A DNA stretch of 32,000 bases from Sinorhizobium meliloti (lineage in GTDB: Bacteria > Pseudomonadota > Alphaproteobacteria > Rhizobiales > Rhizobiaceae), in contig NZ_JAGIOS010000001.1 in NCBI RefSeq assembly GCF_017876815.1, positions 2,280,001 to 2,312,000 of the forward strand, in the 5' to 3' direction. Each line of letters opens with the position of its first letter. The stretch's first letter is position 1. The notes below the pieces were generated by a model that saw only the letters and a program-made list of their open reading frames with translations, was not told where the DNA came from and did no database searches. Positions 12,775 through 15,350 of the stretch are shown piece after piece. The position numbers and the translations under genes were made by a program.

Positions 12775-13332
12775 ATGACCAAGCTTCTCGGCATATCGGG
12801 CAGTCTGCGGAAGGCCTCCTTCAACACTGCATTGCTCAAAGCCGCACAGGCGGTCGCGCCGGACGGGGTCGAATTCGAGACCGCGACCTTGCATGGCATT
12901 CCGCTATATGACGGAGACGTGGAGGCCGAAAGCGGCGTTCCAGCCGCTGCGGAGGCGTTGAAGCAGAAGATCGTCGCGGCGGACGGCGTCATTCTCTTCA
13001 CGCCGGAATACAACAATTCGGTCCCGGGCGTTTTCAAGAATGCAATCGACTGGCTGAGCCGCCCGCCAGCCGACATAAAGAAGGTCTTCGGCGGGCGGCC
13101 GTTCGCGCTCGCCGGCGCATCTCCGGGAAGCTTCGGGACCATTCTCAGCCAAAACGCCTGGCTGTCGGTGATGCGGACGCTCGGCGCCGAAATGTGGTCG
13201 GGCAAGCGGCTGATGGTGCCGAAAGCCAACACGTTGTTCGACAGCGACGGACAACTGAAGGACGATCAGACCCTGGAGAGGCTGCGCGGCTTCGTACAGG
13301 CCTTCGCCGATCACCTGGCAATGAGGAACTGA
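12775..13332 (+). CDS. NADPH-dependent FMN reductase (azoreductase/quinone-reductase-like)
   Basis: LLGISGSLRKASFN and FTPEYNNSVPGVFKNAIDWLSRP motifs. ATG 12775 follows AAAGGAA. The longer track ORF from 12667 would run through the terminator. Confidence 0.88.
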   Translation: MTKLLGISGSLRKASFNTALLKAAQAVAPDGVEFETATLHGIPLYDGDVEAESGVPAAAEALKQKIVAADGVILFTPEYNNSVPGVFKNAIDWLSRPPADIKKVFGGRPFALAGASPGSFGTILSQNAWLSVMRTLGAEMWSGKRLMVPKANTLFDSDGQLKDDQTLERLRGFVQAFADHLAMRN

Positions 13333-13517
13333 CGTAGCGTTCGAAACTGTGGAGCACGCCGACTTTCCGGCTGCCACCACCATTCCCGGTGAGCGGGGTG
13401 AGGGCTCTTGAAGCAACCCCCCTCCCTCTAACCGAAACGCGGGATCGTGATCGTAGCGATTCCCTCACAGGGGCGTCTTCGGCTCAGCCCGAAACAACCG
13501 CGGTTCGATCTTTTTGG

Positions 13518-14135
13518 TCAGGTGATTGGAAGACTGGTATCAAACACCGCACCATGCAGACGCATCAACTGGTCCGTTCTCGCCGGGTCATCTTCGAACC
13601 GCTGTCCCGGCAATGTCACAAGATCACTCGATAAGACACGATCGAACAGGGCGTAGCAAACCTCGCCGTTATTGTGTCGGGACTTATAAGCAAGACCATC
13701 CAGATCCGGATAATCCTCATGCAATGCGAGCGCGAGCGCACGAGATGGTGCGTAGTCTGCCCCAGCACTGATGGACGCATCTACGCCGTGAAAGAGTAGC
13801 CCTTCGTCCATTAACTTTGCCAGAACTAATTGGCGATGCAGTCGACGTGGTGTCCACATGCGCTCTTCCACGAACGCTCGCCGAACGATGCGGTTTGCAG
13901 GCCTACGAAGAACGGTCTCAACAAATGCCCCTTCGAGGCGTTGCGCGACGTACAGAAGGCGATACTGGCCCGCAGGCGCATCGAACCGGCCTTGGGGTGT
14001 CGCACCGGGCGCCGGCCCAAAGAAGATCGCACCATGAATCTTCTGATGGACGCGGACAACGACGTCGCCCGCGTCTAATGCAGCAATTCTTAATCCCGAG
14101 GGAAAGCGGGCTGTTGGCGCAGTATAAGCGGGCAC
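13518..14135 (-). CDS. RES-domain toxin (NAD+-targeting RES family)
   Basis: Ordered RES hallmarks: GRFD (Arg), LLYVA (Tyr), FVETVL (Glu), YKSRHNNGEVCYALF (Ser). The GTG start lies 3 nt after the partner's TGA. Lower G+C than the flanks. Confidence 0.85.
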   Translation of the reverse strand: MPAYTAPTARFPSGLRIAALDAGDVVVRVHQKIHGAIFFGPAPGATPQGRFDAPAGQYRLLYVAQRLEGAFVETVLRRPANRIVRRAFVEERMWTPRRLHRQLVLAKLMDEGLLFHGVDASISAGADYAPSRALALALHEDYPDLDGLAYKSRHNNGEVCYALFDRVLSSDLVTLPGQRFEDDPARTDQLMRLHGAVFDTSLPIT

Positions 14136-14138
14136 TCC

Positions 14139-15242
14139 TCAAGCCTCGTCCATGCCAAGATAGGCTTTGGCCGCCGTTACGACTTCGCCAACGCGCCCTC
14201 CGGCAAGGATTCGCTGTGGTGTATCTGCCAAGTTCGGATCGGTGTCGATCAGAAACTGCAGCATCGACCAACGGCCGGCACCGCTGTCATCAAAGAGTTT
14301 GGTCACCTTGGCCAACCCCTCTAGCAGGCGGGTGTCGTTATCCACGGTAATGAACTGGAACTTGGGAAGAACGATTTCCGATCCGTGCATGAGACCGAAT
14401 GCCGAGCCCAACTTGACCCGCTTGTGGAGGGCCTGCCGGGTCGTGCCGAGCATCTTCGCGCCCTCAGTTAGAGAGACCCCACCGCCGGAACGATCGAGAA
14501 GAGCAGTGCTGATGTTGAGGAACCTTTGGTCATCGCTCAATTCAATCGCGCTGGTTCCTCCCTCGACCTCCGCCAAGAGATCGGCCGAGAGCTGAAACTG
14601 GTCGGCGGCGAGATCTATGTGCTTGGCAAGCTCCGAGAATGCTCGGGGCCTATCATACTGGCACAACCGCAACAGCTCGGTACGAGCCGGTGTCAACTCG
14701 GTCAACAGAACGAAAGCATCGATAGCCAACTGCTCGGCGCGTGGGGTAGGGGTCCACCTGTGCAACAGAGCTTGTCGAACCTCCCTCGAACGCGCGAGAC
14801 AGTCATCCACAATGTGCGAGTACCAGTTACGCCTTGTCTTGACGCGGTGAACCGATGAACGCTGATGCCGGGGAAGTTCGAAGTCCGACACTGATGCCTC
14901 GTGAAACGCAGCCCCCATAAGAAGTGCTGCCGAGTGGAGCCGCGAATTGAATACGAACACAAGTTTCAAGGTAGGGCTCGCCGAAACGTCAGGGAGAAGC
15001 GTCTCGCGAACGCGCATGTTCCAGTGACGAAACTCCTCACTGTCTGCCCAATGGTGGTTCAATCGCAATTGATGACCAGCCCACTTCTCAAGCCCTCGAT
15101 CCATGTCTCCTGCAGTTGGACGGTCGAATACGAGACCGGCGAGGTACTGAGAGAGTGTCTGTCCTGCTTCTCGAGCGTGCAGCTCTGCAGCAGCGCGCAC
15201 GACCGGATCTATGTCGGTCGCAGATCTTGTGTGTTCGCTCAT
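14139..15242 (-). CDS. 367-aa RES-partner protein: unknown N-terminal region (~235 aa) + Xre-like HTH + DUF2384-like toxin-binding C-terminus
   Basis: The C-terminal third has the HTH LTEGAKMLGTTRQALHKRV followed by RWSMLQFLIDTDPNLADTPQRILAGGRVGEVVTAAKAYL, resembling Xre/MbcA/ParS antitoxin C-domains. It lies immediately upstream of the RES gene. I cannot assign the N-terminal two-thirds. Confidence 0.8.
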   Translation of the reverse strand: MSEHTRSATDIDPVVRAAAELHAREAGQTLSQYLAGLVFDRPTAGDMDRGLEKWAGHQLRLNHHWADSEEFRHWNMRVRETLLPDVSASPTLKLVFVFNSRLHSAALLMGAAFHEASVSDFELPRHQRSSVHRVKTRRNWYSHIVDDCLARSREVRQALLHRWTPTPRAEQLAIDAFVLLTELTPARTELLRLCQYDRPRAFSELAKHIDLAADQFQLSADLLAEVEGGTSAIELSDDQRFLNISTALLDRSGGGVSLTEGAKMLGTTRQALHKRVKLGSAFGLMHGSEIVLPKFQFITVDNDTRLLEGLAKVTKLFDDSGAGRWSMLQFLIDTDPNLADTPQRILAGGRVGEVVTAAKAYLGMDEA

Positions 15243-15281: not shown

Positions 15282-15350
15282 GGTTGATGGTTAGGTTGAT
15301 ATATACAGTCGTAAGCGTGGTATATCAACCTCGAGCATCAAGCCATCAAC
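15282..15350 (-). promoter_or_regulatory. Promoter/operator of the RES operon: -35 TTGATA (15328-15323), 17-nt spacer, -10 TATATA (15305-15300), inside a GTTGAT/ATCAAC repeat array
   Basis: Perfect 11-bp inverted repeat AGGTTGATATA (15293-15303) / TATATCAACCT (15321-15331). Further hexamer copies at 15283, 15337 (ATCAAG) and 15345. The promoter hexamers on the minus strand lie within the dyad arms. Confidence 0.5.

Follow-up and report, generated by a model that had tools for sequence, protein, structure and literature searches.

Within a 32,000-nucleotide stretch of the Sinorhizobium meliloti genome (contig NZ_JAGIOS010000001.1, positions 2,280,001 to 2,312,000; hereafter, the window), we examined a two-gene RES toxin–antitoxin locus whose antitoxin carries a 235-residue N-terminal region ahead of its predicted core. 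RES-Xre systems encode NAD+-depleting toxins studied in connection with persistence and plasmid stability, and perhaps with phage defense; the known antitoxins are small, two-domain proteins. Here, the antitoxin is encoded by a complete open reading frame (ORF), and the toxin gene starts 3 nt past the antitoxin stop codon, the operon adjacency that marks a RES antitoxin (Table 1). The downstream toxin is labeled an NAD+ phosphorylase in the NCBI genome annotation, and residues R28, R50, Y62, E73, R92, R101, Y150, and R153 are kept among the partner RES toxins. A homologue search retrieved one protein 100% identical to the antitoxin, which is recorded for Ensifer sp. D2-11 as hypothetical. Translation confirmed that positions 14538–15242 of the minus strand encode residues 1–235, and the four peptide strings quoted in the original prediction, an earlier reading of this DNA, were all found in the ORF. 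These residues appear to comprise an N-terminal hairpin, a linker, and a folded mid-domain, placed ahead of a winged helix-turn-helix (HTH) and a C-terminal helical domain.

Table 1. Features of the RES toxin–antitoxin locus, in window coordinates
Feature	Residues	Position	Strand	Basis or remarks
Complete antitoxin ORF		14139..15242	minus	367 aa plus stop codon
Acidic two-helix ribbon-helix-helix (RHH)-like hairpin, DPVVRAAAELHAREAGQTLSQYLAGLVF	~10–40	15123..15215	minus	AlphaFold2; sub-threshold Pfam
Disordered linker	41–87	14982..15122	minus	pLDDT <50; length and sequence variable in the family
Five-helix mid-domain	88–235	14538..14981	minus	AlphaFold2
Basic Arg/Ser-rich, low-confidence loop, PRHQRSSVHRVKTRRN	116–139	14826..14897	minus	Between helices 1 and 2 of the mid-domain
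Basic winged HTH, nearly invariant helix TRQALHKR	238–300	14343..14531	minus	Foldseek match to 2kfs; charge +4
Helical C-terminal domain, AGRWSxLQFL...DPNL...P...L	301–367	14142..14342	minus	Rv2175c_C/DUF2384-like
Putative operator		15282..15350	minus	Perfect 11-nt inverted repeat plus outer half-sites
RES-domain toxin gene		13518–14135	minus	205 aa; Pfam RES, E 1e-16

The anatomy of the protein was derived from a 38-homologue alignment and an AlphaFold2 (AF2) model built on that alignment. The original prediction described the ~190 residues that follow the extreme N-terminus as helical. The model and the alignment split this region in two, so that the description is only partly right: residues 88–235 (~145 aa) form a folded helical domain, but residues 41–87 are a disordered linker whose columns are unalignable and hypervariable in the family alignments. 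Modeled alone, the mid-domain reached a predicted local distance difference test score (pLDDT) of 87 and a predicted TM-score (pTM) of 0.80, with helices at residues 90–115, 137/140–160, 167–181, 187–196, and 198–228/233. The loop between the first two helices carries a charge of +4 and an isoelectric point (pI) of 11.8 (family mean charge, +2.4), and its residues 126–137 fall below pLDDT 50. Such a basic loop could touch spacer DNA or be a protease or kinase site.

That residues 1–235 belong to no recognizable family, as originally claimed, was borne out by every search. Pfam returned only sub-threshold noise for this region and NCBIfam returned nothing, whether the whole protein or sub-segments were submitted, and neither PADLOC nor PHROGs gave a match. 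Sequence searches of the PDB, queried with the protein itself and three profiles (the 38-sequence family, the N-terminal region, and a 31-sequence mid-domain set), yielded chance-level matches only, among them ornithine carbamoyltransferase and DegV. A match of residues 151–188 (window 14679–14792) to the mammalian mitochondrial ribosomal protein mS34 is probably also due to chance; the mS34-like stretch is REVRQALLHRWTPTPRAEQLAIDAFVLLTELTP, and E values of 0.05–0.08 were obtained from the single sequence and the profile alike. Foldseek comparison of the mid-domain model revealed no fold relatives, either in the PDB (best E 0.28, TM-score ≤0.36, root mean square deviation >12 Å) or in BFVD (best E 0.098); the hits in both were generic helical bundles. 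When 31 diverse mid-domains were each searched against Pfam, no family appeared in more than one of them. The original prediction named a confident profile or structure match to a housekeeping domain as an outcome that would overturn it, and no such match emerged from Pfam, NCBIfam, the PDB, or Foldseek. Literature searches did not turn up a description of this architecture. We consider the mid-domain to be a previously undescribed domain family inside a known kind of system.

Conservation within the mid-domain is more in keeping with a structural than with a catalytic role. In a family-wide alignment of 31 sequences, L190 is the sole invariant position, and A105, W140, A176, L180, L183, T184, P185, A201, and L205 are nearly invariant. 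The conserved positions are hydrophobic, small, or helix-capping, and no polar residue is conserved in that alignment. Because conserved polar residues are absent, a catalytic or small-molecule-binding role for the mid-domain appears unlikely from its sequence.

The mid-domain is rare and closely tied to RES. A mid-domain profile searched against 1.84 billion protein cluster representatives matched 93 clusters, and a homologue search gave 88 close homologues of the antitoxin that share its architecture. The C-terminal module accompanies the mid-domain in 164 of 177 sequences; the remaining 13 are short (84–201 aa), and stand-alone mid-domain proteins such as P0160 and P0161 look truncated. Most mid-domain proteins are 330–410 aa long, with the domain starting at residue ~65–135. 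In a second group of ~280–320 aa, it lies almost at the protein start. The 40 genome loci come mainly from Alphaproteobacteria (Hyphomicrobiales, Acetobacteraceae, Caulobacter, and Sphingomonas) with a few from Betaproteobacteria, and rhizobial plasmids carry further family members, always under the annotation hypothetical protein. A RES ORF lies directly downstream (−132 to +10 nt) in 33 of 36 mid-domain loci, and likewise in three metagenome or genome look-ups. At two Mesorhizobium sp. loci (L022 and L023; 3929–4660, minus strand), an IS6-family-like transposase ORF occupies the RES position, leaving an operator-bearing orphan antitoxin. Related loci are found in accessory or mobile contexts, either on plasmids or beside genes for ArdC, ParE, DUF4365, or ImmA-like peptidases. 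The co-occurrence of the mid-domain with the C-terminal module and RES indicates that the N-terminal region does not travel independently of RES, a possibility that the original prediction had raised; the mid-domain is confined to this antitoxin family and, in full-length homologues, is always fused to the core of winged HTH and C-terminal domain.

What precedes the mid-domain is far less uniform. The sequences upstream of it fall into an RHH-like hairpin, other sequence (a few with an RHH pattern), regions bearing [FY][YH]GGG, a DnaA_N domain, or almost nothing. In one 465-aa metagenomic relative, P0137, a DnaA_N domain (E 2.5e-16) occupies residues 80–139, the linker position between an RHH-like N-terminus and the mid-domain. 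The [FY][YH]GGG motif (FYGGG, HYGGG, FHGGG) recurs in N-terminal regions that are otherwise unalignable (P0072, P0073, P0075, P0081, P0082, P0124, P0128–P0130, P0132, P0133, P0136, and P0140) and might serve as a short linear motif recognized by a partner or protease. The window protein lacks it.

The RHH-like hairpin is restricted to one subclade of the antitoxin family. In the window protein, AF2 places its helices at residues 13–25 and 30–39 with pLDDT ~70, and the family consensus over this segment is DPVVRAVAEARAREAGxSLSxYLAxL. The original prediction likened the extreme N-terminus to the helical part of an RHH fold, and that part of the comparison holds: a short G-x-[ST] loop connects two helices, and its G27 is invariant within A-G-x-[ST]-[LV]-S; the NikA-like family of RHH proteins is matched below threshold by the N-termini of 15 of 22 relatives (best E 2.2e-4; MatP_C is matched in one); and the family profile aligns with the helices of the Arc repressor at E 0.69. 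The window protein's own N-terminal segment, however, has no Pfam match, not even at E ≤ 10. Ahead of helix 1, where an RHH ribbon would alternate hydrophobic with basic or polar residues, the pattern is instead x-[DE]-[LIM]-D-P, and AF2 builds no strand there, a monomer model being a weak test of this point. The acidic Asp/Glu at the would-be DNA-facing positions are atypical for a DNA-reading strand. The net charge is −3 (pI 5.0) for residues 1–40 and +4 (pI 10.4) for the winged HTH. The helical likeness to RHH proteins is thus real but weak, and a DNA-reading ribbon is doubtful.

Codon comparison with two relatives whose proteins are ~90% identical (L007 and L047) suggests that the three parts evolve under different constraints. 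Residues 1–40 show 10–14 synonymous-only changes and 4 amino-acid changes, in line with a hairpin that is translated and constrained. The linker has 4–5 synonymous-only and 10–13 amino-acid changes, a pattern suggestive of relaxed or diversifying evolution. With 30–35 synonymous-only and 7 amino-acid changes, the mid-domain is the most constrained segment among these close relatives; residues 236–367 show 25–27 and 11–14, respectively. The Prokaryotic Genome Annotation Pipeline (PGAP) starts one of these homologues at residue 47 (L047, Shinella zoogloeoides plasmid NZ_CP093531, 3001–4104; 90% identical). The codon pattern of residues 1–40 and the position of the operator favor the longer ORF over this start. 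The distance from the operator to the mid-domain is ~330–430 nt in long forms and ~100–120 nt in short forms.

The putative operator centers on a perfect 11-nt inverted repeat, AGGTTGATATA/TATATCAACCT. Its arms occupy 15321–15331 and 15293–15303 and are separated by 17 nt; outer GTTGATG-type half-sites lie at 15343–15350 and 15282–15290. Almost every mid-domain locus has a family motif, GGTTGAYA-N17-22-TATCAACC (≤2 mismatches), upstream of its antitoxin gene, ~50–90 nt before the start wherever the ORF start was not over-extended; elsewhere in the ~300 kb scanned, there were only stray, weaker matches. In most loci, a third half-site follows 12–14 nt past the right arm, and a left-hand fourth is present in some. 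The density of GTTGAY is 3.3 per 180 nt at the operator versus a background of 0.23. Assigned by eye, a −35-like TTGATA (15323–15328) and a −10-like TATATA (15300–15305), separated by a 17-nt spacer, lie inside the operator; in the family motif, the left arm holds a −35-like TTGAYA and a −10-like hexamer follows 17 nt on, overlapping the right arm. We take these elements to match the rhizobial promoter consensus. Loci with the RHH-like piece average 3.33 GTTGAY sites (n = 12) versus 3.32 in those without it (n = 25). Given that the operator is the same in both sets, the reader of GGTTGAYA should reside in a part of the protein that all members share, and the RHH-like piece is not the main reader. 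The basic winged HTH, with its TRQALHKR helix, is the obvious candidate judging from its sequence.

The C-terminal 130 residues were modeled with pLDDT >90, and an HTH and a presumed toxin-binding module, both of which the original prediction counted on, are present here. Foldseek aligned residues ~238–362 with 2kfs, the nuclear magnetic resonance structure of Mycobacterium tuberculosis Rv2175c, over 120 columns (E 1.3e-2, probability 1.0, target-normalized TM-score 0.62), which identifies a winged HTH plus Rv2175c_C arrangement for that part of the protein only. Pfam Rv2175c_C was detected in 37 of 38 relatives and exceeds its cut-off in the distant relatives P0144 and P0139, and Rv2175c_wHTH and other HTH families match the HTH region below threshold. 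An Xre (Cro/C1-type) HTH was not recognized: HTH_3 (8 of 38) and Xre-like-HTH (6 of 38) matches were sporadic and sub-threshold. The window protein also has no match to PF09722 (Xre_MbcA_ParS_C/DUF2384) at E ≤ 1. By analogy with characterized systems, the C-terminal domain presumably plugs the RES toxin.

We propose that residues 1–235 are a genuine three-part extension of a RES antitoxin core in which the mid-domain is an oligomerizing or spacing scaffold, and we assign this explanation as a whole a probability of roughly 45%. The mid-domain would act as a non-catalytic module that oligomerizes or spaces the antitoxin, allowing at least two winged-HTH heads to reach widely spaced half-sites. 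Those heads would read half-sites spanning the −35, the −10, and the sequence just downstream of the −10, repressing the operon, and the C-terminal domain would block the active site of RES, much as the C-terminus of MbcA sterically blocks MbcT (PMC6436930). The RHH-like hairpin and linker would be accessory and unneeded for operator recognition; possible roles for them are extra oligomer contacts or partner binding. The operator geometry fits this proposal, with the main half-sites 25–30 bp apart center to center, much wider than the span of a compact HTH dimer and than the approximately one helical turn of the Xre-RES type. Several observations weigh against it. In Pseudomonas putida Xre-RES, the operon's own promoter is repressed only by a higher-order 4:2 complex in which the toxin dimer organizes the antitoxins (PMC12204516); a RES toxin dimer could likewise bridge two antitoxins here, which would make a dimerizing mid-domain unnecessary. 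The mid-domain is confidently folded as a monomer by AF2 and so needs no partner to fold. The window protein itself scores 14.5 bits against Rv2175c_C, below the 26.4-bit Pfam cut-off, and the choice of the winged HTH as the GGTTGAYA reader draws only on charge and conservation. A sigma-70 consensus scanner called no promoter at the operator, which is why the −35 and −10 elements had to be assigned by eye.

A possible but considerably less probable explanation is that the mid-domain, the variable arm, or both serve as a trigger sensor. Binding of a phage or cellular protein, or cleavage or modification, would release or activate the RES NADase, and the locus would be a sensing toxin–antitoxin or abortive-infection module. 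Such a role would suit the extreme variability and modularity of the region ahead of the mid-domain (RHH-like, DnaA_N, [FY][YH]GGG, and unrelated sequences), the excess of amino-acid over synonymous changes in the linker, the accessory and mobile contexts of related loci, and the occurrence of unrelated N-termini on the same core in other RES antitoxins. It fits poorly with a mid-domain that is itself the most constrained segment rather than a fast-evolving one, that offers no conserved polar pocket, and with the absence of a PADLOC match. It is a somewhat more tentative idea still that the different N-terminal heads recognize different phage or cellular proteins and that the mid-domain relays this to the winged HTH and the plug, releasing the toxin and de-repressing the operon. 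Strict co-inheritance of the mid-domain with RES, together with its strong constraint and the hydrophobic stripes conserved along helices 1 and 5 that could form an interface, would also be expected if the mid-domain made a second toxin contact, wrapping or clamping RES to add affinity or specificity or to set stoichiometry. We regard this as unlikely, given that known RES antitoxins neutralize by the C-terminal domain alone (PMC6436930) and that RES toxins 31–37% identical to the window toxin pair with antitoxins devoid of the mid-domain.

The remaining explanations are less probable again. The original prediction considered that the protein might carry two DNA-binding modules, an RHH and an HTH, and the three to four operator half-sites and the sub-threshold RHH matches in relatives could be read in this way. 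A cryptic ArsR-type HTH might even be added at residues 185–212, where Pfam HTH_20 matches the window protein with a score of 16.7 bits (cut-off, 27) and recurs below threshold in 32 of 38 relatives. Yet the RHH-like segment is acidic, with Asp/Glu at would-be DNA-facing positions, and neither operator sequence nor site count changes when it is missing, which leaves the pairing of RHH and HTH doubtful. The HTH_20-matching segment has a charge of −3 and lacks a conserved Gly, basic residue, or turn; residues 198–228 are a single continuous helix with pLDDT >95, and in distant relatives HTH_20 marks the true C-terminal HTH only. Additional DNA-binding modules are therefore improbable. Fusions of HEPN domains to RES are known, and the mid-domain contains R156-x4-H161 (RQALLH) at a helix end, with H161 invariant in the closest subfamily. 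R156 nonetheless gives way to H, Q, K, or S in close relatives, H161 is lost family-wide, and neither Pfam nor Foldseek gave a HEPN match, making a HEPN-type catalytic mid-domain very hard to credit. Equally implausible is an artifact, whether an untranslated N-terminus, for which the PGAP start in the Shinella plasmid homologue might speak, or a fusion of two genes by a frameshift or assembly error, which the original prediction had listed as a refuting outcome. The one-ORF architecture is seen across dozens of genera as well as metagenomes, the codon changes indicate purifying selection that extends to residues 1–40, the mid-domain co-occurs with the C-terminal module and RES, and a conserved promoter/operator lies upstream of the long start. 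These observations refute a fusion artifact.

The locus resembles the type II toxin–antitoxin systems Xre-RES, MbcA-MbcT, and ParS-ParT (COG5642–COG5654) in having the antitoxin gene immediately upstream of the RES toxin gene and in placing an HTH ahead of a C-terminal helical domain, whose motif W..L.FL...DPNL...P...L..G resembles their toxin-binding domain. Palindromic operator sites in the promoter region are a further likeness to the P. putida system, from which the antitoxin differs in its HTH, Cro-like Xre there and an Rv2175c-type winged helix here (PMC12204516). MbcA has 113 residues (PMC6436930) versus 367 in the window protein, 235 of them extra at the N-terminus. Rv2175c, the sole meaningful structural match, shares the winged HTH and C-terminal helical domain, but its solved chain of 146 residues is too short to hold a mid-domain. 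Rv2175c is a substrate of the kinase PknL, and it is not known to be linked to a RES toxin. Members of the RHH superfamily (MetJ/Arc/CopG; e.g., NikA, Arc, and ParD) share the helix, G-x-[ST] loop, and helix of residues ~12–40, in contrast to which the window protein has acidic or polar strand positions, a negative net charge, and a hairpin that is dispensable for the conserved operator.

Two antitoxins of ~230 aa from plasmids of alpha- and betaproteobacteria suggest that the arrangement may extend beyond this family. Agrobacterium leguminum WP_304983987 (L048 plasmid, 761–1459; 232 aa) has the C-terminal module in common with the window protein (hhalign 98%, E 1.4e-13), and its own PF09722 match is weak (E 0.07); for Cupriavidus metallidurans WP_008649482 (L049 plasmid, 722–1429), the likeness in the C-terminal module is weak (hhalign 19%). 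Both are annotated as hypothetical and lie upstream of RES toxins that are 31–37% identical to the window RES, and their ~110-residue N-termini do not align to the mid-domain in profile comparison. Because the N-termini differ on related RES partners, variable N-terminal additions on a shared core may be a wider theme among RES antitoxins.

These findings indicate that a core of winged HTH and toxin plug can bear a large, constrained helical domain without known relatives, as well as a swappable arm. A mid-domain that sets oligomeric geometry would explain the reading of such distant half-sites, and one that senses a trigger would provide a handle on RES toxin activation. Annotation pipelines call these proteins hypothetical, and at least one start call drops the N-terminus, which a domain model based on the alignment would fix.

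In the window, the neighbors of the toxin–antitoxin pair are apparent housekeeping or metabolic ORFs (glyoxalase-like, flavin reductase-like, hydrolase-like, and short-chain dehydrogenase-like), as judged from ORF translations only. The G+C fraction is 0.58–0.59 over the pair (window 13001–15000, 2 kb) versus ~0.60–0.66 in the flanks. This lower G+C content and the setting between such ORFs are consistent with horizontal acquisition of the pair.

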